From Candidatus Tiddalikarchaeum anstoanum (GTDB taxonomy: Archaea > Nanobdellota > Nanobdellia > Tiddalikarchaeales > Tiddalikarchaeaceae), in contig CABMEV010000010.1 of assembly GCA_902385255.1 (NCBI GenBank), forward strand, positions 64,114-128,113: a DNA stretch of 64,000 nucleotides, in the 5' to 3' direction. The first letter of the stretch is position 1. Each line of letters begins with the position of its first letter. Below are positions 3,756-50,205 of this stretch, one piece after another. The position numbers were made by a program, and so were the translations under genes. The notes under the pieces were generated by a model. That model did no database searches, had not been told where the DNA came from, and worked only from the letters and a program-made list of their open reading frames with translations.

Positions 3756-4118
3756 ATGGTTTCTTCAAAGAAGCTTGTTTTAGTTGTTGATGATAATGAA
3801 GATATTCGTTTTCTTGTTAAGACCTGGCTTACAAATGCTGGATTTTCCGTTGTCACCGCTGTTGATGGTGATGATTTAATAAAAAAGTTAGACAAGAATA
3901 TTGATTTGGTGTTGACTGATTTTCACATGCCGGGCCCCGACCCGAAAATAGTACTTGACTCTATTAAGAAGAAAAGTCCAAAGGCAAAAATTATCTATCT
4001 TACGGGCTCCGTTCCTGATGTTATGATTAAAAGTCCAGTTGTTGGTTTTATTTCAAAGCCTGTGGAGGAAGAGGTCTTGATTAAGAAATTAAAAGAATTA
4101 TTCCTTAAAAATAAATAA
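3756..4118 (+). CDS. Single-domain response regulator (receiver/CheY-like)
   Basis: 120 aa. LVVDDNEDIRFLV...LVLTDFHMPG (acidic pocket, phospho-acceptor Asp), conserved K near the C-terminus. No output domain. Confidence 0.85.
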   Translation: MVSSKKLVLVVDDNEDIRFLVKTWLTNAGFSVVTAVDGDDLIKKLDKNIDLVLTDFHMPGPDPKIVLDSIKKKSPKAKIIYLTGSVPDVMIKSPVVGFISKPVEEEVLIKKLKELFLKNK

Positions 4119-4153: not shown

Positions 4154-7100
4154 ATGGCTGGATACGATGATTTTACTAGTGAGAAATATTTTAGACTCTT
4201 GTTCGACAAGATGAGTGATGCGGCATTTCTCGCGGATGTCGAGTCCGGACTTTTATTTGATGCTAATTTGTCAGCAGTTAAATTAACAGGCAGAGCGAGA
4301 AGTGAGCTAGTTGGCAAGCATCAGTCTATTCTCCATACTGATAAGAATGAAGGTAAACGGATTTTCAGGGCAGCGATGCTTGAAGGTGCGCCTCACGAGT
4401 TTGAAAGCAGTGTAATCACAAAAAAAGGAAATATAGTTCCTGTTTTAATCACAGTCACTATTATCAAGCTTGATGGCAGAACTTTTGCCTTGGGAATTTT
4501 CAAAGATATCACTGAAATTAAACACGTCGAGACAGAATTATTGAAAGAGAGGGAATGGTCAAACTCGATTATCCACTCAGCTCCAAATATTATTATAGGA
4601 CTTGGCAAGAATTCTAAAATATTAATATTTAATGAGTTTGCAGAAAAACTTACTGGTTATAAGGCTAAAGAAGTCATTGGCAGTAACTGGATTGATATAT
4701 TCATATCTAAAGACAAGCGCAGGGAGATGTATAAATTATGGGAAAACATTGTTGACAAAAAATTGGTCGGGCATCATTATACTAATCCAATAATCCTGAA
4801 GGACAAATCGGAGCGTTTAATTTCATGGAACAACACCTGCTTAACTGAACATGATAAATTTAAGATGGTGCTTTCAATTGGTGAGGACGTTACCGAACGG
4901 GAGAAATTACTAATCCAGTTAAGACAGAGCGAGTATAAGTATCGCAAGATTTTCGATAATTCTCCTGAGATTATCATCCTGCTGGATAATTTCGGCAAAG
5001 TTCTCGATATTAATTATAGTGTCTTTAACGCTATTGGCTATAAACCCAGTGAGGTTATAGGTAAGTTATTCTTCAAGCTGCCTTTTATACCCAAAAAATC
5101 TATGGTAGCAATGAGAGAGAATTTTATCAAACGTGTTAAAGGCGAAGATGTCGGCTCTTATACTGCAGATTTCATAGCGAAAAACGGGCTTACGCATTAT
5201 GGCCAGGTAAATGGCTCCGTAGTCAAGGATGATAATGGAAGAATTATTCGGTCATTAATAACCATACGCGACATTACTGAGATTAAGAATGCTGAGACTG
5301 AATTGGTGGAGAGCGAGCAGAAGCTTTACAGCATTATTAACGGCTCGCTGACGCCCACGTTTGTCATAGGGACTAACCATAAAATATTATACTGGAATTC
5401 AGCTTTGGAAAAATTGAGCGGTCTTACTGCAAGGAAGATGATTGGCACAAATAATCAATGGGTGGTTTTTTACAATAAGAAGAGGCCTGTAATGTCGGAT
5501 TTATTGGTTAATGGAGATTTCAAGGCAGTTCATTCCTGGTATGCTAATAAAGTATCTAAGTCCAGCTTGTTAGCGAATGCGTACGAAGCCATTGATTTCT
5601 TCCCGAAATTAAAAAAGTGGCTGCGATTCGGTGCAGTCCCAATCAAGGACAGCAAAGGCAAACTAATTGGAGCTATTGAAACGTTAGAAGATATTACTGC
5701 AAAAAAGAAATTTGAGGAATTATTGATTAACAGTGAGTCTCGTTTCAAAGCTTTGTTTAATAACATGAAGAGCGGGGTTTCAGTTTATGAGGCAGTTAAT
5801 AATGGTAATGATTTCATTTTTAAGGATTTCAACAAGGCTGCCGAGCGTATCGATAAAATAAGCAAGGCGTCAGTTATTGGGAGGAGTATCTTGAAAGTTT
5901 TCCCTGGAGTTCGCAAGTTTGGATTGTTTGATATCTTTAAACAAGTATACAGGACAGGCGTTCCTAAACATCACCCTATATCATTGTATAAAGATAAAAG
6001 ATTGAACAGTTGGCGTGAGAATTATGTTTACAAGCTTCCTACTGGCGAGATTGTTGCTGTTTTTGATGATGTCACTGAGCAAAAAAAAGCAAATATCGCT
6101 TTAACTTTTAGTGAGGTTCGTTACAGGCGTTTGTTCGAGGCGGCGCGTGACGGAATATTTATACTGGATTATGAAACAGGGAAGATTGTTGACGTAAACC
6201 CTTACATGACCGAGATGCTAGGCTTCACCCACAATGAACTCATTGGCGAGAAGCTTTGGGATCTTGGCTATTTTAAGGATATTATCGCCAGCCGAGCTGC
6301 ATTCAAGATACTGCAGAAGAAAGGTTATATCCATTACGAGAACCTGCCTCTTAAAACTAAGAAAGGTATTATCTTTACTGTCGAATTTGTAAGCAATGTT
6401 TATGATGTTGGCGGCAGAAAAGTTATCCAGTGCAATATTAGGGATATTACTGGCCGTAAAAAGGCTGAAGAGAAGATAGTAAGCCTTGCCAGGTTCCCTA
6501 ATGAGAATCCAAATCCTGTAATGAGGTTTTCAAAGACAGACCTTTTATTTGCCAATAAGCCAGGTCTTGACTTTTTTAAAAAATATGTTGCTTTTTGCAA
6601 AAACCGCAAAGATACCCTTAGAAATCTGATAATTGAATCTTTAAAAAATAATATTAGAAAAGATGCAGAGATTAATCTCGGGGAGAATTATTATTTATTA
6701 TTTTTCATCCCGTTCGTTAATGAAAATTATGTTAATGTATATGCTATTAATATTACAACGCGCAGAAAGGCAGAGGGATTACTGCAGGACAGCGAATCCC
6801 GTTTTAGGGAATTATTCAGCAGTATGGGCAATGGTGTTGCAGTTTACGAAGCGGTTAATGACGGCGCAGATTTCATTTTTAAGGATTTGAACAAGGCAGG
6901 GGAAAGGATTAGCAAGATTAGGAGAAGTAAAGCAGTTGGGCAAAGGCTGACTAAACTATTCCCAAGCATTAAGAAATCAGGGCTGCTGGAAATGTTCACG
7001 CGCGTTTTCAAGACAGGGAAATCTGAAAGAATTCCAGCTGTACTTTATAATGACAAAAATTTAAACCAATGGGTTGATAATTATGTGTATAAACTACCAA

Positions 7101-9550
7101 CAGGAGAATTAATCGTTGTTTATGATGATATTACTGTTCGCAAGAAAATTGAAGATGAATTAAAGGATAGCGAGGAGAAATTCAGAACTCTCATTGAGAA
7201 TGCTTCTGACCAGATTTTTATTATTGATAATAAGTACAGATTTGTATCTGCAAATAAAGTTGTTCTGACACTGTTTAGAAAAACTCCAAACGAAGTAATA
7301 GGAAAACATATTTCTGAAATTTTTCCAAAAGAGATTGCCGCTAAGAATTTAGAGAATCTGAAACATATATTCAAAACAGGCAAAGGAATATTTATTGAAG
7401 AAAAATTGAATATTGGAGGGCATGAATTCTGGGCAAGTTCAAGTCTTAATCCTGTGAAAAATGACGCCGGGCAGGTAACAGCGGTGCAAGGTATTGTTAG
7501 GGATATTACTGAATTGAAAAAAGCTGAAGAAGCTGATAGAGTTAATTTTGAAAACAACAAAGTCCTCTCGGAATCAGCCATTCATCTTATTGAGATATCA
7601 AATGAGGATGACTTGCTTGATTACGTAACAAACCAGGTAAAGATACTGGCAGGAGATGTTGTTGTAGTAACAACCAGTGTTGACATAGAGAACGGCATTG
7701 CTCACATTAAGTCGGTTAAAGGTGTGGATAATTTAGAAAAAATTGCCAAATTATTTAATAAAAATTCTAAAAATATGTATTTTGAATCTCCAAAAAACTC
7801 TAATTTGGAATACAGGACGCCCTCCCTGCAGGAGTTCAAAGGAGGTATTTATGAACTTGCATTAAGGAGAATACCTAAACAAATATGTGATTTGATAAAT
7901 AATTGGCTGAATATAGACAAGATTTACTTGATGGCTTTTATGGTTAAAAAAGAGTTCTTAGGTGATATAATCATAATCACCAGGAGAGGTTCGGAACTGA
8001 AGAATAAAGAAGTAATAACTGCATTAGTCAATCAGTCATCAATTGCGCTGCAGAAAAAAATACTTGAGGAAGATATGAAAAAGAGCGAAGATAAGTATCG
8101 TAACCTAACTGAAAACATAAATGATATTATCTACTCCATGGATGATAAAGGTGTAATCACTTATATAAGCCCCAAGGTTGCATCGTACGGAATTAATCCT
8201 ATGCAGTTAATAGGTAAAAATTTTTCACATATCATATATCGTGATGATTTGCATAATATTTCGAATGATGTAACTACAACACTCAAGACAGGCAAAGAAT
8301 TCATATCTATTTTCAGGGTCCAAAATGATAAAGGGGAATTATTCTGGTTTGAAGACAAAGGAAAAGCTAGAACTGATGATTCAGGCAAGGTAGTTGGCAT
8401 ACTTGGGATAATAAGAGATATTACAGAACGAAGGAAAGCAGAGGAGAATTTGAGAAATTCTGAGGAGGAGTTTAGGACCATATTTGACAGTTCAACGGAT
8501 GGTATTATAGTTGTTGACTTAAATGGTAAAATATTAAAAATTAATAAAAAAATCTTGGAACTAACTGGATATGATGAATCTGACTTTATAGGGAAACTTT
8601 TTACAAGTTTATCTATGATTTCAATAAATGATTTGCCAAATCTTTCAGTCACATTCGCTGGCTATATGTCTAGTTTTACAAAATTAAATGAATTAGCTGA
8701 ATTTGAAATTAATACTCGAAAGGGGGAAAAATTAATCATAGAACTGAAAGCTTCACCATTTATCAAGAATGGCAGGAAAACAGGCATAATTTTAATAATT
8801 AGAGACATTACTGAGCGCAACAAGCTTGGAAAATTAGAATCCGACGCTAAAGTTAATGAAGAATTGAATAAGATGAGAAATGATTTCCTTATGATGATAA
8901 CCCACGAATTGAAGCAGCCATTAACCCCTATAATAGGTTATGCAGGGCTTCTAAAGAATGAAGAATTATCGCGCGTCTCCAGGGATTATGTTGATAAGAT
9001 TATTTCAAGCTCGTACAAAATGAAGGACTTGGTTAACAGCATCCTTACACTGATAAAATTAGAAGCTGGAACACTGGAATTCCACTTCGAAAAATATGAC
9101 TTATCACAAATTATTGTTGACTCATTAGCTGAGAAGACTTCGCTGATTTCATTGAAAAGAATAATTATCTCCAAAGAACTGGATAAAGTCGATGCGGTTT
9201 GCGACTATGAAAGGATTAAGGATACAGTAAATAATCTGATTGAAAACGCTGTAAAATTCTCAAAACCAAATTCTGAAATATATTTAAGATTATGGAAAGA
9301 CAATAATAATGCTTATATAATAGTAAAAGACCACGGTGTAGGAATAAGGAAAGATGATATCCCTAAATTGTTTACTAAATTCTACCAGACTGAAGAAGGT
9401 AGAAAAGAAGGAGGAACAGGGATTGGTCTGGCAATAGTAAAAATGATAATAGACAAACACCATGGTAATGTAAGAGTAAGTAGTGAATATGGCAAAGGTT
9501 CAGAGTTCATAATCTCCCTGCCTTTGAAAGGTGCTGACTATGGCAAGTAA
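4154..9550 (+). CDS. Giant multi-PAS/GAF sensor histidine kinase
   Basis: 1798 aa. About 10 PAS-like modules with repeated ...RDITE(R/L)K(K/N)AE... linkers. H-box MITHELKQPLTPIIGYAGLL. N-box NLIENAVKFS. G1 DHGVGIRKDD. G2 GGTGIGLAIVKMI. Confidence 0.9.
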   Translation: MAGYDDFTSEKYFRLLFDKMSDAAFLADVESGLLFDANLSAVKLTGRARSELVGKHQSILHTDKNEGKRIFRAAMLEGAPHEFESSVITKKGNIVPVLITVTIIKLDGRTFALGIFKDITEIKHVETELLKEREWSNSIIHSAPNIIIGLGKNSKILIFNEFAEKLTGYKAKEVIGSNWIDIFISKDKRREMYKLWENIVDKKLVGHHYTNPIILKDKSERLISWNNTCLTEHDKFKMVLSIGEDVTEREKLLIQLRQSEYKYRKIFDNSPEIIILLDNFGKVLDINYSVFNAIGYKPSEVIGKLFFKLPFIPKKSMVAMRENFIKRVKGEDVGSYTADFIAKNGLTHYGQVNGSVVKDDNGRIIRSLITIRDITEIKNAETELVESEQKLYSIINGSLTPTFVIGTNHKILYWNSALEKLSGLTARKMIGTNNQWVVFYNKKRPVMSDLLVNGDFKAVHSWYANKVSKSSLLANAYEAIDFFPKLKKWLRFGAVPIKDSKGKLIGAIETLEDITAKKKFEELLINSESRFKALFNNMKSGVSVYEAVNNGNDFIFKDFNKAAERIDKISKASVIGRSILKVFPGVRKFGLFDIFKQVYRTGVPKHHPISLYKDKRLNSWRENYVYKLPTGEIVAVFDDVTEQKKANIALTFSEVRYRRLFEAARDGIFILDYETGKIVDVNPYMTEMLGFTHNELIGEKLWDLGYFKDIIASRAAFKILQKKGYIHYENLPLKTKKGIIFTVEFVSNVYDVGGRKVIQCNIRDITGRKKAEEKIVSLARFPNENPNPVMRFSKTDLLFANKPGLDFFKKYVAFCKNRKDTLRNLIIESLKNNIRKDAEINLGENYYLLFFIPFVNENYVNVYAINITTRRKAEGLLQDSESRFRELFSSMGNGVAVYEAVNDGADFIFKDLNKAGERISKIRRSKAVGQRLTKLFPSIKKSGLLEMFTRVFKTGKSERIPAVLYNDKNLNQWVDNYVYKLPTGELIVVYDDITVRKKIEDELKDSEEKFRTLIENASDQIFIIDNKYRFVSANKVVLTLFRKTPNEVIGKHISEIFPKEIAAKNLENLKHIFKTGKGIFIEEKLNIGGHEFWASSSLNPVKNDAGQVTAVQGIVRDITELKKAEEADRVNFENNKVLSESAIHLIEISNEDDLLDYVTNQVKILAGDVVVVTTSVDIENGIAHIKSVKGVDNLEKIAKLFNKNSKNMYFESPKNSNLEYRTPSLQEFKGGIYELALRRIPKQICDLINNWLNIDKIYLMAFMVKKEFLGDIIIITRRGSELKNKEVITALVNQSSIALQKKILEEDMKKSEDKYRNLTENINDIIYSMDDKGVITYISPKVASYGINPMQLIGKNFSHIIYRDDLHNISNDVTTTLKTGKEFISIFRVQNDKGELFWFEDKGKARTDDSGKVVGILGIIRDITERRKAEENLRNSEEEFRTIFDSSTDGIIVVDLNGKILKINKKILELTGYDESDFIGKLFTSLSMISINDLPNLSVTFAGYMSSFTKLNELAEFEINTRKGEKLIIELKASPFIKNGRKTGIILIIRDITERNKLGKLESDAKVNEELNKMRNDFLMMITHELKQPLTPIIGYAGLLKNEELSRVSRDYVDKIISSSYKMKDLVNSILTLIKLEAGTLEFHFEKYDLSQIIVDSLAEKTSLISLKRIIISKELDKVDAVCDYERIKDTVNNLIENAVKFSKPNSEIYLRLWKDNNNAYIIVKDHGVGIRKDDIPKLFTKFYQTEEGRKEGGTGIGLAIVKMIIDKHHGNVRVSSEYGKGSEFIISLPLKGADYGK
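5740..6100 (+). repeat. Internal PAS-domain duplication, copy A, inside the giant kinase
   Basis: aa ESRFKALFNNMKSGVSVYEAVNNGNDFIFKDFNKAAERI...YVYKLPTGEIVAVFDDVTEQKKA is about 60% identical to copy B. Confidence 0.7.
6790..7150 (+). repeat. Internal PAS-domain duplication, copy B
   Basis: aa ESRFRELFSSMGNGVAVYEAVNDGADFIFKDLNKAGERI...YVYKLPTGELIVVYDDITVRKK. Confidence 0.7.
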
Positions 9551-9914
9551 TGAAATAATACATATAGATGATGATGAAGCTATAAGGGATTTGGTTGTTG
9601 CAGTATTAAAAACCGCGAATATTGAAATACTCAGTTTTCCCGATGCTGAAACTGCGCTCCAAAAAATAAAGAGCGGAGATGTGCGGTTGATAATCCTTGA
9701 CATGAAACTGCATAACAAGTTTGAAGGCGAAGACGTGTTAAAATGGCTTTCCGGCGTTAAAAGCAGGATTAAAGTCATAATTTTGACGGCAAACCCTTCT
9801 GAGATTAGCAGTAAATTAAAATCCGAATATTCTTCATTAGTAAGTGAATGTGTTATGAAGCCTTTTGAGCCTAAACTTTTGATTAATGCGGTTAAAAAAG
9901 CAATTGGCAAATAA
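9531..9914 (+). CDS. Single-domain response regulator (receiver only)
   Basis: 127 aa. IHIDDDEAIRDLV...RLIILDMKLHN. The start overlaps the kinase stop by 20 nt, suggesting translational coupling. Confidence 0.8.
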   Translation: MLTMASNEIIHIDDDEAIRDLVVAVLKTANIEILSFPDAETALQKIKSGDVRLIILDMKLHNKFEGEDVLKWLSGVKSRIKVIILTANPSEISSKLKSEYSSLVSECVMKPFEPKLLINAVKKAIGK

Positions 9915-9986
9915 TAACTTGATGGAAAATACTGCTATAATCAATAATAAAGTATTAAAAACGTTATATACTAATTCATAATATAA

Positions 9987-10661
9987 ATGGCTGATTTAAT
10001 ATCTCTCATCTTCAATATTTCATGGATATTGTTAAGTGCGATAACATCAGTTTTTTCTTTCATACTCGCCAAAAAGTTTTGGAAAACAAAACAGAGAATA
10101 TGCTTCCTGCTAATAGCAGTTTCAATGCTTCTTGACTTAATTGCCAATTTTTTCTGGGCTGGAAATTTCATCGTTTACGGAAGCGAGGACTTAATACCTT
10201 ACCCCACATTCATGGATATATTATGGTTTACTTATTATACCCTGTTAGGTTTTGGAGTGTTGACTTACTGGGTTAGCATATACAGGGAAATTTATGAAAA
10301 CATCCCTGTTTTTTGGATTATGATGATTATAGCATTATCTGTTGCATCATGCTTTTTTGCGCCAGTGTTTTTCGGACCCAGTGCAGACATGATTACACAA
10401 ATAGCTGATTCTTTATACATAGGTCTTCCTTTGTTTTCATCACTTAACTGCATACCTCTCCTTCTTTTTTTTAAAGAAGGCAGGTTGTCAAAACCATGGT
10501 TGTATATGGGAATTGCCTTAACCATTAACTTAGCAGCTGAAATTGTCTGGATTATTGAATCTGTTAATGATTTTGGTTCAATTTCTTCAAATATTTTGTA
10601 CGCATTAGGTTATATTTTTATGATAACCTCTTATTGGAAACTTAATAAACTTAATATTTGA
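9987..10661 (+). CDS. Stand-alone 7-TM membrane protein (possible 7TM sensor module)
   Basis: 224 aa with seven predicted hydrophobic helices and no soluble domain. It sits directly upstream of a 7TM histidine-kinase-like gene. Confidence 0.55.
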   Translation: MADLISLIFNISWILLSAITSVFSFILAKKFWKTKQRICFLLIAVSMLLDLIANFFWAGNFIVYGSEDLIPYPTFMDILWFTYYTLLGFGVLTYWVSIYREIYENIPVFWIMMIIALSVASCFFAPVFFGPSADMITQIADSLYIGLPLFSSLNCIPLLLFFKEGRLSKPWLYMGIALTINLAAEIVWIIESVNDFGSISSNILYALGYIFMITSYWKLNKLNI

Positions 10662-10711
10662 ACGCTTTTTGATTACAAATAATTAAAAACTAATGCTTTG
10701 TTATAATCTGT

Positions 10712-12328
10712 ATGGATATATACATGATTTATCCGGTTTTGCTTCTTATAACAATTATAACTCCTTTTGTAATAATCGGACTGGTTTTCAGGAACAAATC
10801 AAGGCTCGTAAAATTATTTATCCTGGTTCTTTTATGCTTATCAGGCTGGTCTTTTTTCACTTTTTTTGAAATATTGTCCCCAGTCTACAAACCGTTAATC
10901 TACGAGTTTAGCTTCATTTTCAGGACGGCGGTTTCGCCGCTTATGCTGGTATTTGTTTTGGAATTTACAGGAAGAACAAAACTGGTAAATAAGAAATTAA
11001 TCATTGCATTATCACTCTTCTATGCAGCAGTCATAGTTTTATTATTAACCAACAATTATCACAAATTATTCTTGAATTCAATATCCTTAGTCAACCTGCC
11101 TTATGATACAGTAGTAACAGAATCTGTTAAAGGCCCGCTTTTTAATGCATACTTGGCGTATAATTATTCCCTTTTAATAATAGCCTGTTTTATACTATTA
11201 GATTTTATAGTGAATAAAAAAGGGTCGTACAAAGGGGGTTTAATCATCCTTTTAGGTTTATTGATGCCTTTTGCAGCAAACGTATTAACAAATATTTTTC
11301 CAGACATTTTTAATGTCAAACTTGATTTGACTGTGTTGTTTTTTATGGTAACTGAAATACTTTTCCTGGTTGCCGTTAGTTTTTTCAAGCTTATACCTCT
11401 TAGCCGCAACATGGTTTTTGATTTCATCGACGACTCGATTTTTATATTAAACGATGAAGATGTAGTTATTGATTTTAACAAGAATGCTAAAAGGATGATA
11501 GATGAGAAAATAATCAATTATAATTCAGATAAGATTACGGGCGTGAAGATTAACGACTTATTTGGTTCAATTAATTATAAGGGGGAAAACATCATTTTTT
11601 CCGCAAAACAAAAAAGTTATTTCATAGAACAGACACCAATATTTACCAATTCTGAAGTTATAGGTAAACTGCTACGCATCAAGGATATCACATATATGCA
11701 AAAAATTGAAAATTTGACAAAGGACAAGGAGATTAGTGATTTGAAGGATAAATTTGTTTTGTTGATGATTCATGACTTGAAGCAGCCATTAACCCCTATA
11801 ATAGGTTTCTCTGAACTTTTAAAGGAGAGTGCGAATCCTAAACAGAAAGAGTATTCTGACAAGATATTATCCAATGCCTACAAACTAAAGGATATAACTG
11901 AGAAGGTTATAAATTCATTAAAATTCACGGCTGAGACATATGAAAAAACAGATGAGAAAAATTATCTTTCAGAAATAGTAGACGGTGTGCTGGATTCTTT
12001 AGAAACTAGCATAGCTTCGCATAAGGTGAAGATTTTAAAAAAAATTGACAAGATAATGATATCTTATGATTCAAGCGTATTTTCGAAAGTCTTGTCCAAA
12101 ATACTTGAGGATTTAATAAGCGCCAGCCAAGCAGGTAATATTGTTGGTATAGAAAGTTCTGAAGACTCAAAAAACATTTATGTTAATATAAAATTTAAAA
12201 TCAATAGCACTTTCATAAATGATTTGGAGTTTGAAATAATCAAGAGGAAATTGTCAGTTATAAATGTCATATTTGAATTAAAAGATAATGAAATGATAAT
12301 AACACTCCCAAAATCGGGAAAAGCTTAA
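10712..12328 (+). CDS. 7TM-anchored histidine-kinase-like protein with an apparently degenerate ATP-binding domain
   Basis: 538 aa. N-terminal ~230 aa has about 7 TM helices. The H-box MIHDLKQPLTPIIGFSELL is near-identical to that of the giant kinase. In the C-terminal ~170 aa I cannot find N-box, G1 (DxGxG) or G2 (GxGxG) motifs. Confidence 0.7.
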   Translation: MDIYMIYPVLLLITIITPFVIIGLVFRNKSRLVKLFILVLLCLSGWSFFTFFEILSPVYKPLIYEFSFIFRTAVSPLMLVFVLEFTGRTKLVNKKLIIALSLFYAAVIVLLLTNNYHKLFLNSISLVNLPYDTVVTESVKGPLFNAYLAYNYSLLIIACFILLDFIVNKKGSYKGGLIILLGLLMPFAANVLTNIFPDIFNVKLDLTVLFFMVTEILFLVAVSFFKLIPLSRNMVFDFIDDSIFILNDEDVVIDFNKNAKRMIDEKIINYNSDKITGVKINDLFGSINYKGENIIFSAKQKSYFIEQTPIFTNSEVIGKLLRIKDITYMQKIENLTKDKEISDLKDKFVLLMIHDLKQPLTPIIGFSELLKESANPKQKEYSDKILSNAYKLKDITEKVINSLKFTAETYEKTDEKNYLSEIVDGVLDSLETSIASHKVKILKKIDKIMISYDSSVFSKVLSKILEDLISASQAGNIVGIESSEDSKNIYVNIKFKINSTFINDLEFEIIKRKLSVINVIFELKDNEMIITLPKSGKA

Positions 12329-12381
12329 GAAAAATTTATTAAACATAGAGTACATTAAAACTGTTAAGAGATGTTTGAATA

Positions 12382-12777
12382 TTGAAATTTCTTGTTGTAG
12401 ATGATGAAGAAGATATACGCTTATTAATAACGACGTGGCTCAAAAGAAAAGGTTATGACTACATAACCGCAGTTAACGGTGATGACTGCATCACTAAATT
12501 AACAAAAGATATAGATATAATATTATTGGATATAATAATGCCAGGGCTTAAGGCTAAAGATGTGATTGACGGCATTAAAAAGAAGAATCCAAATGTGAGA
12601 GTAATATACTTAACAAGTGTGAAACCCTTCAATGTAACTCAGGAGCAGGAGAAAAAAGGCTTAGTTCCGGTAATAGAACCGCCAATTATAGGTTATATTG
12701 AGAAGCCGCTGGACGAGAAAACTTTCTTTTCAAGAATAGACGACGCGTTAAAGATGAAGAAGTTCTTGAAAAAATAA
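12382..12777 (+). CDS. Single-domain response regulator (receiver only), TTG start
   Basis: 131 aa. (M)KFLVVDDEEDIRLLITTWL...IDIILLDIIMPG. The upstream ATG at 12371 hits a stop after 4 codons, so TTG at 12382 is used. Confidence 0.8.
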   Translation: MKFLVVDDEEDIRLLITTWLKRKGYDYITAVNGDDCITKLTKDIDIILLDIIMPGLKAKDVIDGIKKKNPNVRVIYLTSVKPFNVTQEQEKKGLVPVIEPPIIGYIEKPLDEKTFFSRIDDALKMKKFLKK

Positions 12778-12784
12778 AATAATT

Positions 12785-13360
12785 TTATCTGAGGAATCCC
12801 TCTTTTTTCAATATTAATCTTCCTAATTCGTCAAGACTTGAATAATAACAGATATTATGAATGTCATCTTCGAAGTTAGACGGCAGTTTCTGGCTTATGC
12901 ACCTTTCATCAATAAAGAGATGAATATTTCTCAATTTCTTATCCTTGAATGCACCATATTTCTGATGATATTTGATAAAAGAGAGTTCTATTAAACTGCC
13001 TGGCGAGAATCCGAGGCATATAATACACAACGCCTGCTTTGTCAACTCAGCGTTTAATTTATACCAGTCGCCGTCAATAGGCCTAGTTTCATACTTTTCG
13101 AAATTCTTCTTCAAGTGCTCATAACCATAATAAGTATCTTTGTCAGGGTAGTAACCGATTGGTTTCTTTTTCTTAATCTCGCCGAACTTTAATGCAATAT
13201 CCGTATAAACACCATCGTCAGGAGCGACTATTATGTTGTCAAAGACTTTAGCCAGGAACTTTGCATAATCATAAACGAAATTTTGGTAATCCTCCTTTTT
13301 TATTCCGCCTAAATTCCACAATACTTGCCTGTCAGATAACCCTATCAAGACTGCATCCAT
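12785..13360 (-). CDS. Hypothetical protein; possibly a LOG/SLOG-superfamily Rossmann-like fold
   Basis: 191 aa. The segment LGFSPGSLIELSF resembles the PGGxGTxEEL motif of LOG-family proteins and the size fits. Other LOG motifs are not clear. Weak call. Confidence 0.3.
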   Translation of the reverse strand: MDAVLIGLSDRQVLWNLGGIKKEDYQNFVYDYAKFLAKVFDNIIVAPDDGVYTDIALKFGEIKKKKPIGYYPDKDTYYGYEHLKKNFEKYETRPIDGDWYKLNAELTKQALCIICLGFSPGSLIELSFIKYHQKYGAFKDKKLRNIHLFIDERCISQKLPSNFEDDIHNICYYSSLDELGRLILKKEGFLR

Positions 13361-13383
13361 AAAGTACTAACTAACATGCTCTA

Positions 13384-13394
13384 TTTTTAAATAA
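13384..13394 (+). promoter_or_regulatory. Archaeal TATA-like element (TTTTTAAATAA) about 26 nt upstream of the EndoQ-like ATG
   Basis: Seen in sequence. The 54-bp divergent intergenic region is shared with the minus-strand 191-aa gene. Confidence 0.45.
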
Positions 13395-13414
13395 CCTATT
13401 TATCAACTAATCAT

Positions 13415-14698
13415 ATGATATTCGCAGATTTTCACATACACTCAAAATACAGCCGCGCAACAAGCAGCACCATGGACATCAAGCACTTATCAGAGTACGG
13501 TTCTATGAAGGGATTAAACGTTATAGGAACAGGAGATTTCACGCACCCAAAATGGAGAAGCGAGATAAAAAGAGACACTGAATACTTAGGCAAAGGAATT
13601 TACAAAAGCAGGTTCAATAATATGAGGTTTGTGCTCTCAAGCGAGATAGCAACAATATACTCCCAGGGCGATTCTGTCAGGAAGATACACCATATAATAA
13701 TACTGCCTGACTTTGAAATAGTTGAACAATTCGTGGATAACTTAAGCAGGAAATTATTGGCATCAAATAAGAAAGCCAACTTCACAAGCGACGGGAGGCC
13801 AATAATAGGGATGAGCAGTTTGGAGCTTTGCGACACGCTGTTTTCAACTTATGATAAAGCACTCTTAATACCTGCTCATATATGGACTCCATGGTTCAGC
13901 CTGTTTGGAAGCGGAAGCGGATTTGACAAGATAGAAGACTGCTACGGCAAGTACACTAAGAATATTTTTGCATTAGAGACGGGACTGTCATCCGACCCAT
14001 TGATGAACTGGAGACTGTCACAGATAGCGGATAAGACATTAATCAGCAACAGCGACTGCCACGGCCCGTTCGTTGACAGGATAGGACGGGAGTGCAACGT
14101 TTTTGATACAACGCTTGACGCTTTCAACTATGACTACTTATATGACGCATTAAAGAATAAGAAATTAGCATTCACTGTAGAGGTTGACCCAAGTTACGGC
14201 AAGTACCATTTCGACGGACATAGGAACTGCAACATCTGCTTTACGCCAAAAGAGAGCATACAACATAAGAATATCTGCCCGGTATGCAGGCGCAAGTTAA
14301 CAATAGGAGTGCTTCACAGGGTTGAGGAACTCGCTGACAAACCTGAAGGTTACAAGCCTCTAAATGCAGTGCCTTTCCAGTACCACGTTCCGCTCATAGA
14401 AATAATAGCTGCACTGACTGGTAAAGGAATCGGAACCAAGGGAGTGAAGGAACAGTATTTTGAATTAATCAAAAAATACGGCAACGAGTTTAACATAATG
14501 TTCAACCTGTCTGTTAATGAGATAGAAAGTTCATTTACAGGGCTTGGGAAAATAATACAATCACTCAGGGATAAGACTATGAAGGTAACGCCAGGTTATG
14601 ACGGCGTGTACGGAGTTCCAGGTATAGGAACTTTGAAAGATAAACCTTCTAAAACAGTTAAAACACCCCAAAAAAGCATTTTAGAATTCCAAAAGTAA
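13415..14698 (+). CDS. PHP-domain endonuclease, endonuclease Q (EndoQ)-like, for deaminated-base repair
   Basis: 427 aa. FADFHIHSKYSRA (PHP HxH), LISNSDCHGP, VEVDPSYGKYHFDGH and the Zn-finger CNICF...CPVCRR match my recollection of the Pyrococcus EndoQ architecture and its ~424-aa length. Confidence 0.7.
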   Translation: MIFADFHIHSKYSRATSSTMDIKHLSEYGSMKGLNVIGTGDFTHPKWRSEIKRDTEYLGKGIYKSRFNNMRFVLSSEIATIYSQGDSVRKIHHIIILPDFEIVEQFVDNLSRKLLASNKKANFTSDGRPIIGMSSLELCDTLFSTYDKALLIPAHIWTPWFSLFGSGSGFDKIEDCYGKYTKNIFALETGLSSDPLMNWRLSQIADKTLISNSDCHGPFVDRIGRECNVFDTTLDAFNYDYLYDALKNKKLAFTVEVDPSYGKYHFDGHRNCNICFTPKESIQHKNICPVCRRKLTIGVLHRVEELADKPEGYKPLNAVPFQYHVPLIEIIAALTGKGIGTKGVKEQYFELIKKYGNEFNIMFNLSVNEIESSFTGLGKIIQSLRDKTMKVTPGYDGVYGVPGIGTLKDKPSKTVKTPQKSILEFQK

Positions 14699-14732
14699 TG
14701 TTTTTAAACAGGTTTTTTCCTATATTTGAAAG

Positions 14733-15575
14733 ATGACTTTAAGGGATATTTTGTACACAACATCCAATGAGATAACTAATATTAAAGATAATATTTCAGA
14801 ATATTCTGCAACTTCTCAAAAATACACTGACTGCCTTGTTAATATGCAGAGAATAAATTACATATTAGATTTGGACAGGGGAAAGAAAGAAGGTTTATTG
14901 GATAAGTTTCACAGCCTAAACATTTCAAGGATTACACCTATTAAGGGAAGAGGATATCTTCAGAACATAATTGGCGAACTTGAGGAAGTTCAAACGGTTT
15001 TCGAGGAAGAAGTTCCGGAATTTAATGATACTTTAAATCGGATTATTTCATCATATCATAACAATGAGATAAGCGATGATAACGCATGTCTTATACTAAT
15101 GACTAATTGGCTGGCTAATTCGAATTATAGAGATGATTTAGTATTGACTGAAATTATGGAATATATGAATCTTGCTAAGATTAATTCTGCAAGAACTGCA
15201 GTAGAGATGCTTGGAACTAACTCTTTCAATGAAGATTTGCAGGAAAAATTTAATTATTTTATTGAAAACTTAAGCAATACGCTCAGGGGAACTAAATTGA
15301 CTTTTTTATATCCGGAACCGGAACTTAAAACAAGTCAAAAAATTAAGCCAAGCTCTATATTAAACGCACCTGTTAATACTACTTTTGAAAATTTAGAAAT
15401 AAATTTTGACTTTATTAACGATGATGTTCCTGTTAAGAATTACAGAATAATGGAGAATGATAACTTAGTTGCAGAGATTAACCCTGCCGTAACAGCCATA
15501 CTTCACGAAAATAATCATGCAAAAATCGTAAGCCTTACTAACTTATTGGATTTTATTATGCCAAGATTAAACTGA
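14733..15575 (+). CDS. Hypothetical protein, probably co-transcribed with the EndoQ-like gene (34-nt gap)
   Basis: 280-aa ORF with no recognisable motif. Confidence 0.5.
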   Translation: MTLRDILYTTSNEITNIKDNISEYSATSQKYTDCLVNMQRINYILDLDRGKKEGLLDKFHSLNISRITPIKGRGYLQNIIGELEEVQTVFEEEVPEFNDTLNRIISSYHNNEISDDNACLILMTNWLANSNYRDDLVLTEIMEYMNLAKINSARTAVEMLGTNSFNEDLQEKFNYFIENLSNTLRGTKLTFLYPEPELKTSQKIKPSSILNAPVNTTFENLEINFDFINDDVPVKNYRIMENDNLVAEINPAVTAILHENNHAKIVSLTNLLDFIMPRLN

Positions 15576-15586
15576 AAATCCCTGTT

Positions 15587-16258
15587 TTAATCTTTAATTT
15601 CTAATTTTTTTTCAGGAAATTTTTCTTTCAATGTATTAATTAGCGTATCTTCACTTATACCTGAAAGGTCAATTATTACTGTTTTTGACATATCTAAATT
15701 CATTAGCTGCATTAAATTTCTTATTAAATTATTTATTTTTTTAGTATATTCAGTTATTTCAGTATTAGTGAATATAAAGAGAGTTTTGCTGGAAAGGCGA
15801 TTGATTCCGTGTCTTGTTTTAGCATAATTATGTTTTATTTCAAACCGTTCAATGCTTTCTTTTTTAATCTCGTATTTTCCGACTCTGTCTGAAACTATTA
15901 TTCTGTTGTTTGTTATGTCATAGATTTCGTTATATCTGGCTTTATTTATTGCAAGCACGTCCAAAACTATAAGTAATAAAACACTTCCAAAAATAATATA
16001 TTTCATAGTTATAACAACGCCGAGTGCGGCTTCAGGAGTTCCTTCAATATTTCCTGAAGCAAAACTAAAAATTGTTTTTAAAACAAGCCCCATTTCACTC
16101 AAGAAATTAGTATTGTTTGCTATGCTATTATTTTCATTTATTGCCTGGATTTTAGAGTCAAAATCCATTAATGAAAATACAGTCACAAGCACTGTCAATG
16201 CCGCAGTTAGAAAAATAATTAGAAATATATCAGGATATTTAGACCTTTTAATTATCAT
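15587..16258 (-). CDS. Membrane protein with 2 TM helices and a possible bacterial-PH-like cytoplasmic domain
   Basis: 223 aa with two hydrophobic helices. The segment NRIIVSDRVGKYEIKKESIERFEI fits a bPH/DUF304-like pattern weakly. Confidence 0.4.
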   Translation of the reverse strand: MIIKRSKYPDIFLIIFLTAALTVLVTVFSLMDFDSKIQAINENNSIANNTNFLSEMGLVLKTIFSFASGNIEGTPEAALGVVITMKYIIFGSVLLLIVLDVLAINKARYNEIYDITNNRIIVSDRVGKYEIKKESIERFEIKHNYAKTRHGINRLSSKTLFIFTNTEITEYTKKINNLIRNLMQLMNLDMSKTVIIDLSGISEDTLINTLKEKFPEKKLEIKD

Positions 16259-20295: not shown

Positions 20296-21543
20296 TTACC
20301 AGCATATCCCATCATAGACTGCAGCTGCTGTTTTTATTTTCCTTCCCGCTATTACTATCTTACCTTTGTACAAATCTTCTTTTTTGAACTCGTCCCAGTC
20401 TGTTATTATCAAAACAGCATCGCTCTCATCCACTGCTTCTTTTGCGCTTTTTGCAAAATTTACTTTGCCATCGAATATTTTCTTTGCATTCTCCATCGCT
20501 TTCGGATCGTATGCGACTACTTTGGCGCCTAACTGCAGCAACTCGTTGATTATGGTTATGCTTGGAGATTCCCTCATATCATCAGTTCCTTTTTTGAAAG
20601 CAAGCCCCAATATGCAGATTTTTCTGCCTTTAGGGTTTATGTGGTTCTTTAACAGCGCGATTATCTTTGAAGGCTGTTTTCTATTGACTTCCATCACGCT
20701 TTTTAACAAAGTCATAGGCTCTCCTGTTTCTTCGCCTTTTTTAATTAATGCTTTGACATCTTTCGGGAAACAACTGCCCCCAAATCCGCACCCTGCATCC
20801 AAAAAGCTTCTGCATATTCGTTTATCCATGCCTACAGCATCCATGACATCATAGACGTCTATCCCTATTTTTTTGCATACGTTGCCTACTTCGTTTGCGA
20901 AGCTTATCTTTGTTGCAAGCAGGCTGTTGTTTGAGTATTTTATCATCTCTGCAGTTGTGGGATTCGTTACGAATATCTTTTGAGGAAAACCTTTGTATAA
21001 TAATCTCATCTTCTCCTCAGTTTTTGAGTCAATGACGCCGAGAACCACCCTGTCCCCTTCGAGGAAGTCCTTGATTGCAGTCCCCTCCTTTAAGAATTCA
21101 GGATTCATAGAGAGCCCGAAAGCTTTGCCGCTTTTGTCAAGTATCGGCTTCACTATATTCATGGTTGTTCCAGGAACCACGGTGCTCTTTACAACAACCA
21201 CTTTATAATCATTCAAGTTCTCGCTTATCGTTTTTGCAGCGCTCTTGATATAATCAAGATTGATGCTTCCGTCATCGCTGCTGGGAGTGCCGACGCATAT
21301 GAATACTATTTCGCTTTTTGTTATTCCTTCCTTGGAATTAGTTGTAGCTTTCAACGAGCTTTTCTTAATCATGCTCTGCAATAATTCCTTCATGCCTTCC
21401 TCGTATATTGGAGGTTCTCCGCTGTTAATCATGTCTACTTTTTTATTGTCAATGTCAATGCAGGTCACAACATGGCCCATCTTTGCAAAACAAACGCTTG
21501 TTGTTAATCCAACATAACCGCTTCCAACTACTGCGATTTTCAT
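20296..21543 (-). CDS. UDP-glucose/GDP-mannose-family nucleotide-sugar 6-dehydrogenase
   Basis: 415 aa. N-terminal Rossmann MKIAVVGSGYVGLTT, catalytic GFGGSCFPKD. Confidence 0.9.
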   Translation of the reverse strand: MKIAVVGSGYVGLTTSVCFAKMGHVVTCIDIDNKKVDMINSGEPPIYEEGMKELLQSMIKKSSLKATTNSKEGITKSEIVFICVGTPSSDDGSINLDYIKSAAKTISENLNDYKVVVVKSTVVPGTTMNIVKPILDKSGKAFGLSMNPEFLKEGTAIKDFLEGDRVVLGVIDSKTEEKMRLLYKGFPQKIFVTNPTTAEMIKYSNNSLLATKISFANEVGNVCKKIGIDVYDVMDAVGMDKRICRSFLDAGCGFGGSCFPKDVKALIKKGEETGEPMTLLKSVMEVNRKQPSKIIALLKNHINPKGRKICILGLAFKKGTDDMRESPSITIINELLQLGAKVVAYDPKAMENAKKIFDGKVNFAKSAKEAVDESDAVLIITDWDEFKKEDLYKGKIVIAGRKIKTAAAVYDGICW

Positions 21544-49577: not shown

Positions 49578-50205
49578 TCGCGACTATTAATGATTTATAG
49601 GAGAATATTTTTCCAGTTAAGCCGTTTACCCAATTAATTAACCGCTTATTGTTTAAGTAATAGAGAATCCTGCCTAAACCTCTTGGCGTTACCCACTCCC
49701 TTGATACTATATTTATGTCGAATCCATTGTCTTTCAGAATTTCTATGATTGCCCTTGGGTGAACAGGCTGCCTATGTGTATAATCGTTGAAGAACTCCCA
49801 TTTGCGTCTCCTTATATCCGGAAAAACCAGCATCATTTTTCCGCCTTTTTTTAAAACTCGCGACCACTCTTTTATTATTTCATAGCGGTTATCCAAGTGT
49901 TCTATCACGCAGTCCGAGCATACTGCATCGAAAACTCCGTCTTTAAACTGCAATTTTTTTGCATCCCCAAGTTTAACGTTCAAGCCTTTTTTAGCTGCGT
50001 ATTTAATGAAAGTTTCATTATTATCCAATCCGAACGCTTCAACTTTTTTCGGGAGAAATTCCAAGAATGCACCCCAGCCGCAGCCTATATCTAATACTCT
50101 TTTTGGTTCTCCTAAAATGTCATAATAGTGCAGGACCTGTATTTCCCGCATAAACTTGGAATACTTGTTGGCGTAAGGTTTAGGCAGAACGTGTTCATAA
50201 TACAT
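49567..50205 (-). CDS. Class I SAM-dependent methyltransferase
   Basis: 212 aa. VLDIGCGWGAFLEFL, FDAVCSDCVIEHL. Confidence 0.8.
   Translation of the reverse strand: MYYEHVLPKPYANKYSKFMREIQVLHYYDILGEPKRVLDIGCGWGAFLEFLPKKVEAFGLDNNETFIKYAAKKGLNVKLGDAKKLQFKDGVFDAVCSDCVIEHLDNRYEIIKEWSRVLKKGGKMMLVFPDIRRRKWEFFNDYTHRQPVHPRAIIEILKDNGFDINIVSREWVTPRGLGRILYYLNNKRLINWVNGLTGKIFSYKSLIVATKV

Follow-up and report, generated by a model that had tools for sequence, protein, structure and literature searches.

A membrane-bound histidine-kinase homolog of Candidatus Tiddalikarchaeum anstoanum lacks its ATP-binding motifs, retains its H-box and may act on neighboring receivers

As we analyzed a 64,000-nucleotide stretch of contig CABMEV010000010.1 from Candidatus Tiddalikarchaeum anstoanum (the window), we found a histidine-kinase homolog in which every ATP-binding motif is lost, the fold core and the H-box are kept, and the receivers encoded in the same gene cluster are intact. 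Because the ATP-binding pocket is gone and the phospho-accepting His remains, the protein, called the pseudo-kinase below, probably moves or removes phosphate on neighboring receivers rather than making it. We give about an even chance to the reading that it is a kinase-dead, signal-gated transmitter whose H-box engages receivers once these are phosphorylated, making it a histidine phosphotransferase, a phosphatase or both. Three points are inferred: a function for the protein, receivers as its targets and the direction in which the phosphoryl group moves. The open reading frame list and the translation agree exactly with the position given in the preliminary description and show a plus-strand frame of 538 codons with an ATG start (Table 1), and the identical protein at NCBI is annotated as [quoted passage not shown]

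Table 1. Features of the pseudo-kinase gene and its cluster, in positions of the window
Feature	Position	Strand	Details
REC0, type-A receiver	3756..4118	+	120 aa; Response_reg E 8.5e-18
Giant soluble kinase	4154..9550	+	1798 aa; 8-9 PAS, HisKA, intact HATPase_c (Pfam)
REC1, type-B receiver	9540..9914	+	124 aa; Response_reg E 6.8e-16
Orphan membrane protein	9987..10661	+	224 aa, 7 hydrophobic segments; between REC1 and pseudo-kinase
Pseudo-kinase (predicted kinase-dead sensor transmitter)	10712..12328	+	538 aa, ATG start; HisKA_7TM - PAS - DHp - truncated CA-like
HisKA_7TM module	10739..11395	+	residues 10-228; PF16927 E 2.2e-34; seven hydropathy peaks
Weak PAS-like domain	11414..11716	+	residues 235-335; PAS_9
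DHp (HisKA) helical hairpin	11720..11935	+	residues 337-408; HisKA E 2.3e-10; AF2 helices
Truncated CA-like domain, predicted ATP-blind	11936..12325	+	residues 409-538; hhalign, MAFFT, AF2, Foldseek
N-box remnant K463..D467	12098-12124	+	alignment with nearest kinases
8-residue loop 496-503 in place of lid	12197-12220	+	AF2 model
REC2, type-A receiver	12382..12777	+	131 aa, TTG start; Response_reg E 1.7e-15

The N-terminal sensor module matches PF16927 with 119.7 bits, against a gathering cut-off of 28.6, and covers profile positions 1–220 of 224. It is followed by a PAS match at residues 235–296 (Pfam), for which the E value of PAS_9 improved from 3.7e-3 with the full-length query to 3.7e-4 with the 101-residue region on its own, both scores being below the Pfam gathering score. 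The HisKA family (PF00512) matches residues 346–400, and the AF2 model places the two helices of the DHp hairpin at positions 2–38 and 41–71 of the 203-residue fragment. The H-box is intact, as the preliminary description had stated: H354-D-L-K-Q-P-L is encoded at 11771–11791, with the His354 codon at 11771–11773, and the longer stretch H354-D-L-K-Q-P-L-T-P-I-I-G-F differs from the subfamily consensus H[DE]LKQPLTPIxGY solely in the final Tyr, which is Phe. Helix 1 of the DHp is 49% identical to the family, members of which are 59% identical to one another. Pfam found no receiver domain in the 538-residue protein itself.

The C-terminal part lacks a recognizable ATPase domain. No HATPase_c family was returned by Pfam at E ≤ 1 in the whole protein or at E ≤ 10 in the isolated last 135 residues, and NCBIfam provided no rescue. 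The alignments to full-length kinase models of NCBIfam end at residue 494 (PhoR, PnpS, CreC, AtoS and KdpD) or residue 497 (VanS), both in the strand that immediately precedes G1. When 1.84 G representatives were searched exhaustively with phmmer, most of the alignments listed ended by query position ~160 (residue ~495) and, among those listed, none but the self-hit went beyond position 180 of 203. We compared the motifs in a MAFFT alignment with the 17 nearest kinases and by hhalign against a family profile built without the query, and the two were concordant. The N-box NLIDNAIKF reads KILEDLISA, the first Asn being replaced by Lys463 and the Mg-binding Asn by Asp467; the Asp position of DxGxG is taken by Phe495, and its glycines fall within an 11-residue deletion; the ATP lid and GGxGIGL (GxGxGL) are removed by a 14-residue deletion; and GKG has become KDN. 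The hhalign alignment spans 123 columns (E 2.7e-5), with gaps of 11 at G1 and 14 at the lid and G2. The CA-like domain is 19–20% identical to the family, compared with 42–44% within the family, and has diverged about twice as far as family members have from one another, with the DHp near family-level conservation.

Structure prediction points the same way. The AF2 model, a monomer with a pLDDT of 84, keeps the alpha/beta sandwich and has a short 8-residue loop where the lid is expected. Its top Foldseek matches are DHp-CA structures of kinases and include, among the best 50, the noncanonical RetS and DivL. The preliminary description had reported ~170 C-terminal residues without recognizable N, G1 and G2 boxes: the boxes are indeed gone and no HATPase_c match was obtained, but the CA-like part measures about 130 residues (409–538) and is still detectable as a truncated CA homolog. 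The term pseudo-kinase is well supported, as no ATP-binding motif has escaped substitution or deletion and the fold core and H-box survive. Judged by its motifs, the protein lacks the HATPase_c domain with N-box Asn, DxGxG, GxGxG and lid that a HisKA-type kinase requires, and ATP-dependent autophosphorylation is predicted to be absent. Motifs hidden in another frame, or an assembly artifact, were rejected as explanations, both flanks of the missing segments lying in one frame. At the C-terminus, the strands match those of the family up to the stop codon, and the protein is simply ~25 residues shorter.

It is improbable, though with a chance that deserves consideration, that the gene is an evolutionary relic of a former kinase–receiver pair, now disappearing or with only its membrane/PAS part still in use. 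The pseudo-kinase is a singleton with no ortholog carrying the same degenerate domain, its CA-like domain shows the doubled divergence and two internal deletions described above, its GC content of 0.32 is slightly below the window average, and the neighboring 224-residue membrane protein is likewise an orphan. Both deletions are, however, in frame, and the C-terminal strands, the near family-level DHp and H-box and the strong HisKA_7TM match all argue against decay. In the CA-like domain, 134 codons contain no stop codon in their own frame, and the other five frames contain 3–19 (18–19 in the two on the same strand). Although the genome is AT-rich and a rough neutral model puts the nonsense hits expected from the excess divergence at ~6.6 (P~0.001), the frame stays open over all 538 codons; the protein being a singleton without orthologs, this neutral-decay test is a crude and indirect gauge of purifying selection. 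Small, gene-dense genomes, as are typical of DPANN archaea, also speak against a lingering relic. From the homology up to the C-terminus, the confident fold and the open frame, the gene does not appear to be decayed.

The top phmmer matches belong to a HisKA subfamily specific to Nanoarchaeia (P0009–P0027; E 1e-17 to 1e-11), with members from Candidatus Nanoarchaeia and Ca. Tiddalikarchaeum that include the giant neighboring kinase and a kinase with HisKA_7TM-dCache-HAMP architecture (P0018). Homology along the full transmitter and the shared H-box indicate that the pseudo-kinase is a member. It resembles the subfamily kinases in the H-box, the DHp, the first half of the CA domain and its last strands, with 27–32% identity and E values down to 1e-17, and in the gene order of a kinase followed by a stand-alone receiver. 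In contrast, all aligned full-length members have NLxDNAxKF, DxGxG and GGxGIGL, and the pseudo-kinase has lost all three. The same degenerate domain was found in none of the 1.84 G representatives searched exhaustively with phmmer; a word-indexed search of 5.8 G proteins returned the self-hit and six weak matches for the whole protein and one weak match for the C-terminus alone; and a scan of GTDB genomes gave no relative. Three proteins flagged as motif-less by regular expression (P0020, P0070 and P0099) proved not to be equivalents: P0020 and P0099 lose the family match part-way, the sequence of P0099 ending shortly after the DHp, and P0070 retains most catalytic boxes. The giant kinase ranks only fourth among the phmmer relatives of the pseudo-kinase, and an origin of the latter by tandem duplication was therefore rejected as well.

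The gene lies in a cluster of six on the same strand, in the order REC0, giant soluble PAS kinase, REC1, orphan membrane protein, pseudo-kinase and REC2. The cluster thus holds one true kinase and three stand-alone receivers, all of them intact. The giant kinase, 35 nt downstream of REC0, has no segment at the transmembrane hydropathy threshold and possesses all the boxes attributed to it earlier (HATPase_c E 4.5e-28; NLIENAVKFS, KDHGVGI and GGTGIGL). The start of REC1 overlaps its stop codon by 11 nt, and REC1 shares 37% identity (E 5e-24) with the receiver overlapping a giant kinase, P0009, in a relative. REC0 and REC2 are paralogs (45% identical, E 2e-28), and in REC2 the residues DD, D50, T78 and K108 are present. 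The gene preceding the pseudo-kinase had been described as encoding only a 7TM module. Seven hydrophobic segments are present, five strong and two moderate by hydropathy, but the protein is an orphan unrelated to HisKA_7TM: it matches no Pfam or NCBIfam family, finds only itself among 5.8 G proteins and has no similarity to the 199-residue protein at the same position in L002, and the idea that it is a detached HisKA_7TM module was dropped. Its membership of the signaling system is uncertain.

Kinase genes of related Nanoarchaeia are as a rule followed by the gene of their receiver. H-D kinases precede type-A receivers in 4/4 cases among the relatives, a pattern that the pseudo-kinase and REC2 fit, and H-box class agrees with receiver type in 9/9 pairs, H-E going with type-B and H-D with type-A. 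The giant kinase has an H-E H-box and is paired with the type-B REC1; the pseudo-kinase has an H-D H-box and is followed by REC2, of the same type as the receivers after H-D kinases in relatives. The DHp as a whole is 37% and 36% identical to those of kinases paired with type-A and type-B receivers, respectively, and only four of its columns discriminate receiver type, of which the pseudo-kinase is A-like in two, B-like in one and like neither in one. Since the DHp is equidistant from both types and the discriminating columns are few, the partner assignment rests mainly on gene order. REC2 is the presumed docking partner, and its paralog REC0 is probably docked as well. There is no type-A kinase within the cluster; an H-D type kinase, P0015, is encoded elsewhere in the genome.

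As a kinase-dead transmitter, the pseudo-kinase would neither bind ATP nor phosphorylate itself. It keeps a DHp hairpin with His354, Asp355 and Gln358, a remnant CA fold and 7TM and PAS input domains, and stand-alone receivers, REC2 and probably also REC0, would dock on it. The phosphoryl group would first be placed on receivers by true kinases of the same subfamily, the giant kinase or P0015, and be transferred from the phosphorylated receiver to His354. From there it could pass either to a second receiver, in a relay of the PhyT, ChpT or Spo0B style, or to water, the protein then serving as a phosphatase or sink like RetS or LovK-LovR, and this phosphoryl handling would be under the control of the membrane and PAS sensors. 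Within this explanation, we hold the relay to be slightly more probable than a pure phosphatase or sink. Histidine phosphotransfer between receivers would be the option with the most precedents for a protein that kept its His and lost its ATP site; the preliminary description named neither this option nor the three stand-alone receivers around the gene. The architecture found by AF2 and the motif comparison is that of the phosphotransferase class, a hairpin with a His and a Bergerat-like domain without lid or ATP-binding residues, and the three receivers of the cluster, two of them paralogs of the type expected to dock, are candidate donors and acceptors. The most specific version, a membrane-bound, signal-gated histidine phosphotransferase arisen in a DPANN (Nanoarchaeia) archaeon by lid deletion from a lineage-specific HisKA kinase and relaying from true kinase to stand-alone receiver to His354 to REC2, we put forward only tentatively, as a possibility with the chances against it. 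Regarding dephosphorylation, the residue four positions after the His is Gln (H-D-L-K-Q), which departs from the HisKA phosphatase motif H-E/D-x-x-T/N; as this Gln is common to all intact family members, it is uninformative on phosphatase function.

A parallel to a relay is PhyT (formerly PhyP) of Sphingomonas melonis, a membrane-anchored protein with a sensor domain, in which the phosphorylatable His is conserved and the ATPase domain degenerate; initially taken for a phosphatase, it operates alongside true kinases and single-domain receivers and carries phosphate from one of these receivers, SdrG, to PhyR (PMC5898713). PhyK and LovK of Caulobacter retain phosphotransferase activity when G1/G2 are mutated, and a phosphate sink is formed by LovK-LovR (PMC5964349). 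The pseudo-kinase shares with PhyT the membrane anchor, the sensor, the retained His, the degenerate ATPase domain and the receivers nearby. PhyT, PhyK and LovK are, however, HisKA_2/HWE proteins with an HRxxN H-box from the PhyR-NepR-EcfG switch of the alphaproteobacterial general stress response, whereas the pseudo-kinase is of the HisKA family, has 7TM and PAS domains and receivers without output domain, and has an activity that is inferred; the sequence relationship is at superfamily level only. ChpT of Caulobacter and Spo0B of Bacillus are dimeric and combine a DHp-like His hairpin with a lid-less Bergerat-like domain, as does the model of the pseudo-kinase, but they are small, soluble and devoid of sensor domains. 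The Bergerat fold of ChpT has no lid and does not bind ATP (PMC3433190). Extra helical turns occupy the place of the lid in ChpT, whereas the pseudo-kinase has simply lost it by deletion and is of an origin independent of ChpT and Spo0B. Spo0B, ChpT and PhyT are absent among the listed PDB sequence and fold matches (best 50 for fold), which are ordinary HisKA kinases, RetS and DivL.

RetS of Pseudomonas aeruginosa is a seven-transmembrane sensor of the 7TMR-DISM type. It has an intact H-box, a degenerate HATPase and a periplasmic ligand-binding domain, does not autophosphorylate and modulates the pathway of a true kinase through transmitter phosphatase activity and DHp contacts (PMC5992135). 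The degenerate HATPase and the retained H-box are features that the pseudo-kinase has as well, and structures of the RetS kinase region are among its best fold matches (TM 0.6–0.66; sequence match E 0.005). RetS differs in having two C-terminal receiver domains, a full-length CA domain and HExxT; the pseudo-kinase has no receiver domain, HDxxQ, ~25 fewer CA residues and another 7TM family (HisKA_7TM). With RetS as a close precedent, the phosphatase or scaffold role proposed in the preliminary description is plausible by analogy.

A purely RetS-like inhibitor or scaffold, which would act by protein contacts without phosphochemistry at His354, we nevertheless regard as clearly unlikely. By pairing with the DHp of the giant kinase or P0015, its own DHp might prevent autophosphorylation, or the protein might sequester a receiver at the membrane. 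The DHp indeed shares the subfamily of the giant kinase (30% identity over 158 residues, E 5e-23) with a nearly identical H-box region, the giant kinase is soluble and the pseudo-kinase membrane-bound, RetS and DivL rank among the best structural matches, and precedents exist in RetS/GacS and in PhyT-PhyR sequestration (PMC5992135, PMC5898713). Such a scaffold would leave the intact, adjacent REC2 unexplained; in addition, the giant kinase is fourth and not first among the phmmer relatives, and heterodimers are usually avoided by paralogous kinases. A near-exact consensus H-box would also be superfluous in a pure scaffold, and DivL has lost its His.

That the pseudo-kinase is trans-phosphorylated by the giant kinase, as had been proposed, found no specific support, and we judge it highly improbable. 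The CA domain of the giant kinase would charge His354, in a heterodimer or between dimers, and REC2 would then be phosphorylated. The location of both genes in one cluster on the same strand, the common DHp subfamily and H-box and the intact CA domain of the giant kinase are consistent with this, and it would give REC2 a phosphate source. The two proteins, however, belong to different H-box classes, H-E/type-B and H-D/type-A, which were kept apart in all nine pairs, the giant kinase is already served by a receiver that is translationally coupled to it and conserved in relatives, and the precedent papers cited here describe no kinase CA domain that charges the His of a separate kinase-like protein. 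Least credible of all is an autokinase with unconventional nucleotide binding: the absence of motifs is no biochemical test and the fold core is kept, but nothing is left of the adenine-binding Asp, the two Gly-rich boxes or the lid, another residue stands in for the Mg-binding Asn, and ChpT, with a comparable loss of the lid, binds no ATP (PMC3433190).

Within archaea, REC-PAS/GAF-HisKA proteins without HATPase, such as AF_1472, have been described; reports of canonical HPt domains are confined to the C-terminal ends of certain hybrid kinases, and no two-component system at all was reported from finished Nanoarchaeota genomes (Galperin et al. 2018, PMC5847659). Like the proteins of the AF_1472 type, the pseudo-kinase keeps a HisKA phosphoacceptor domain without a functional ATPase domain, but those have a receiver domain and no CA at all, whereas it combines a membrane sensor with a CA fold that is degenerate but present. 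Kinase-dead proteins are known in bacteria, and the pseudo-kinase arose separately, in an archaeal kinase family. To our knowledge, all characterized kinase-dead relatives of histidine kinases are bacterial, and Spo0B, ChpT, PhyT, RetS and DivL are connectors through which linear two-component pathways become relays and multi-kinase networks.

The weight of the finding is limited, as the protein is a singleton without orthologs and the organism is experimentally inaccessible. Its small DPANN genome invests in a 1798-residue kinase, three receivers and a pseudo-kinase sensor, and functional kinases would be overcounted if annotated by the HisKA domain alone. If active, the kinase-dead transmitter would represent a case from archaea that evolved independently, within a very small genome, and would offer, with one kinase, three receivers and one pseudo-kinase, a minimal system for probing the roles of connectors; simple loss of the ATP lid could then yield branched or relayed phospho-signaling.

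The C-terminal domain of the pseudo-kinase is a truncated, ATP-blind homologue of the histidine kinase catalytic domain (CA, HATPase_c) rather than unrecognisable sequence, as confirmed by five independent comparisons. Pfam found no match in the last ~135 residues, whether the whole protein was scanned (E ≤ 1) or this domain by itself (E ≤ 10), and the profile search suggested in the preliminary description thus did not recover HATPase_c even at the looser threshold. In a phmmer search of PDB, the DHp (the HisKA hairpin carrying the H-box) and the first half of CA align to genuine kinases, with KILEDLISAS opposite NLVGNAIKFT of GacS. The full-length NCBIfam kinase models stop in the strand preceding the G1 motif DxGxG, at residue 494 (PhoR, PnpS, CreC, AtoS, and KdpD) or 497 (VanS). 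When the C-terminal 203 aa were searched exhaustively with phmmer, 1.84 G representatives yielded 5571 matches; apart from the self-match, most alignments among the matches listed end by query position ~160 and none extends beyond 180.

The closest matches form a tight subfamily with the motifs H[DE]LKQPLTPIxGY, NLxDNAxKF, KDxGxGI, KFYQTEEGK..GGxGIGL, and SxYGKGxEF. When the pseudo-kinase was aligned with 17 of its nearest subfamily matches (MAFFT), the N-box Asn residues were found replaced by Lys463 and Asp467, 11 residues missing at DxGxG, a 14-residue deletion spanning the lid and G2 (GxGxG), and GKG changed to KDN, while the H-box departs from the consensus at one position, the final Tyr→Phe. 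The isolated 130-aa domain, compared by hhalign with a family profile built without the query, aligned over 123 columns up to the C-terminal end (E 2.7e-5, 24% identity); both gaps recur, and the G1 Asp lies opposite Phe495. The N, G1, and G2 boxes reported as lacking are thus all substituted or deleted, and each is present in the neighbouring giant kinase by both Pfam and MAFFT, as had been stated. In an AlphaFold2 model of the fragment (mean pLDDT 84, from a 24-sequence alignment), the DHp hairpin leads into an alpha/beta sandwich, in which an 8-residue loop (fragment 161–168, residues 496–503) joins the usual G1 strand to the usual post-G2 helix; the ATP lid is absent. Of the Bergerat fold, then, the sandwich is kept and the lid is replaced. 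Foldseek matches of the model in PDB are kinase DHp–CA structures (TM up to 0.68); RetS, whose HATPase domain is likewise degenerate, and the repurposed kinase DivL are among them. Domain, motif, and model evidence concur that the feature is real and was correctly described.

Features of the signalling cluster, domains of the pseudo-kinase, and ORFs directly downstream
Feature	Position	Strand	Description
REC0	3756-4118	+	Stand-alone receiver
Giant kinase	4154-9550	+	1798 aa, 8-9 PAS domains, no TM segment (soluble)
REC1	9540-9914	+	Stand-alone receiver; start overlaps giant-kinase stop by 11 nt
Orphan membrane protein	9987-10661	+	224 aa, seven hydrophobic segments
Pseudo-kinase	10712-12328	+	ORF, 538 aa
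HisKA_7TM	Pseudo-kinase residues 10-228		Pfam E 2.2e-34
Weak PAS	Pseudo-kinase residues about 235-296		Pfam
HisKA	Pseudo-kinase residues 346-400		Pfam E 2.3e-10
REC2	12382-12777	+	Stand-alone receiver, TTG start
191-aa ORF	Within 12785-16258	-	No family assignment
427-aa ORF	Within 12785-16258	+	Faint zinc-finger-like matches only
280-aa ORF	Within 12785-16258	+	No family assignment
223-aa ORF	Within 12785-16258	-	No family assignment

The NCBI entry identical to the pseudo-kinase is named 'Uncharacterised protein [Candidatus Tiddalikarchaeum anstoanum]'. In the same-strand cluster of six genes the pseudo-kinase comes fifth, and a convergent gene follows REC2. The acidic pair, phosphoacceptor Asp, Thr, and Lys are conserved in each of the three receivers. 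Of these, REC0 and REC2 are paralogous to each other (45% identity, E 2e-28), and REC1 shows no kinship to them beyond the fold. The REC2 start is confined to a TTG (12382-12384) directly after an in-frame TGA, because the next ATG would remove strand 1 and the acidic pair. Relative to REC0, REC2 has an insertion of ~14 residues between the conserved Thr and Lys, also seen in type-A receivers (defined below) of relatives. REC1 is translationally coupled to the giant kinase through their overlap. The gene preceding the pseudo-kinase, described as encoding only a 7TM module, encodes a protein with seven hydrophobic segments that matches no Pfam or NCBIfam family; a search of 5.8 G proteins gave only the self-match. 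The same position in L002, one of the retrieved loci of relatives, holds an unrelated, uncharacterised 199-aa protein.

MAGs of Candidatus Nanoarchaeia supply the nearest kinases, and one, P0015, is encoded on a different contig of T. anstoanum itself. Across eight retrieved loci, a kinase is as a rule followed by a stand-alone receiver. These receivers fall into two types with 21–35% identity between them: type A (REC0, REC2, and five others, 38–53% within type; motifs ...DIxMPG..., IIYLTSVKxF, PVIGYIxKPV) and type B (REC1 and four others, 37–48%; motifs ...LDxKLSGxMQG..., KPF). In nine of nine kinase–receiver pairs, H-E-LKQP kinases adjoin type-B receivers and H-D-LKQP kinases precede type-A ones, and the residue after the phospho-His and the receiver type may thus constitute a lineage-specific pairing code. 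The giant kinase belongs to the H-E group and its coupled receiver is type-B REC1, a pair kept in relatives (REC1 vs. the L002 receiver, 37% identity, E 5e-24); other giant subfamily kinases with the same kind of receiver directly downstream are P0009 (1469 aa, L002) and P0025 (1713 aa, L005). The pseudo-kinase has H-D and is followed by type-A REC2, which would fit a former ordinary kinase–receiver pair. Support for this is thin: only four DHp columns separate type-A from type-B kinases, the pseudo-kinase being A-like in two, B-like in one, and neither in one, and its overall DHp identity to the two is equal (37% vs. 36%). The order giant kinase, type-B receiver, second kinase recurs in relatives, with CA intact in the second kinase (in L002 a MASE3 kinase, in L003 and L005 P0016). 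The family also includes an intact HisKA_7TM kinase (P0018). The degeneration is therefore derived and lineage-specific.

In L005 (8180-11142, related Nanoarchaeia genome GCA_964457955.1), as in L003, the cluster of giant kinase, receiver, and second kinase is continued by a Roadblock/LC7 gene and two genes with V4R domains, a hint that two-component signalling may be tied to a regulatory module of the small-GTPase type. In L007 (1265-2766), a 208-aa PAS-only ORF overlaps a 292-aa HisKA–HATPase_c ORF (P0014) by 4 nt, with a type-A-like receiver after it; these may be separate sensor and transmitter polypeptides or a gene split by a frameshift.

The pseudo-kinase is unable to use a canonical ATP site, keeps its phospho-histidine machinery, a folded CA remnant, and sensor modules, and is situated among intact receivers and a true kinase. 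It resembles Spo0B, ChpT, and PhyT, kinase-derived histidine phosphotransferases, in having retained the His and lost the ATP site; membrane-anchored PhyT, with a sensor domain, moves phosphate from a single-domain receiver to PhyR and was initially misread as a phosphatase (PMC5898713, PMC3433190). PhyK and LovK likewise act as phosphotransferases, LovK–LovR being a sink (PMC5964349). The other precedent is RetS, a transmitter phosphatase that also inhibits GacS (PMC5992135). The pseudo-kinase would act on phosphorylated receivers via His354/Asp355, either relaying phosphate from REC0~P through His354 to REC2 or serving as a phosphate sink or phosphatase; with two paralogous type-A receivers and no type-A kinase in the cluster, REC0 and REC2 would be a natural substrate pair for relay or sink. 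We give a phosphoryl-handling node (relay and/or phosphatase) about an even chance. At His+4, where HisKA phosphatases carry Thr or Asn, the pseudo-kinase has Gln; as the whole subfamily does, this decides nothing on a phosphatase role.

The gene could instead be a relic, which we consider unlikely. The protein is a singleton, and a search of 5.8 G proteins, 1.84 G representatives, and GTDB genomes gave no orthologue for gauging selection, but three indirect points from the coding sequence argue for a gene that is retained, not dying. Both deletions are in frame, and the final two strands and the stop line up with the family C-terminus. Divergence is uneven, the DHp with its H-box being kept closer to the family level than CA: identity to the family vs. 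within it is 49% vs. 59% in DHp helix 1, 30% vs. 44% in helix 2, and 19–20% vs. 42–44% in the CA segments. The 134 CA-like codons contain no stop (3–19 in the other five frames, 18–19 in two same-strand ones); with 6.3% of non-synonymous single-base changes creating stops and an excess divergence of 0.9 substitutions per site over 108 sites, ~6.6 nonsense hits would be expected under neutrality (P of none ~0.001, a crude Poisson estimate assuming a star-like family tree).

A phosphorylation-independent inhibitor or scaffold, for which RetS is also a parallel, seems less probable still. Trans-phosphorylation by the giant kinase is improbable, and a cryptic kinase, given the lost ATP site, is barely credible. 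It is the precedents and the type-A receiver pair that place the phosphoryl-handling node first in this ranking.

Candidatus T. anstoanum belongs to the DPANN archaea (class Nanoarchaeia, order CG07-land) and is known through a groundwater-derived MAG of 36.5% GC (PMC8561730). The base composition and gene content of the window (Cdc6/Orc1, STT3/AglB, PMT-like transferases, topoisomerase) are consistent with it; GC is 0.32–0.35 at 8001-16000, covering the distal signalling cluster and orphan ORFs, vs. 0.36–0.41 elsewhere. Much of the remainder looks like a surface-glycan region (20296-21543, 28228-30870, 36389-37966, 43106-44584, 48339-49577, 50195-51691, and 55903-57327), with two UDP-glucose/GDP-mannose dehydrogenases, STT3/AglB, a PMT-like transferase, a flippase-type polysaccharide-synthesis protein, and two B12-binding radical SAM enzymes.

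By homology the pseudo-kinase belongs to the HisKA kinase subfamily of Nanoarchaeia; judged by its motifs, it lacks the catalytic feature that defines a kinase. In anatomy it is one of the kinase-dead transmitters, a polyphyletic class. It shares no homology beyond the superfamily with any named one and is an independently evolved case. We found no earlier description of it, and the organism's genome paper is silent on two-component systems. Archaeal HisKA proteins without HATPase domains have been noted, and finished Nanoarchaeota genomes reported to encode no two-component systems (Galperin et al., PMC5847659), so a multi-kinase cluster that includes a pseudo-kinase, here from a Nanoarchaeia MAG, extends that picture modestly. 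The giant kinase and its receiver represent a large investment for the small genomes of these DPANN archaea.
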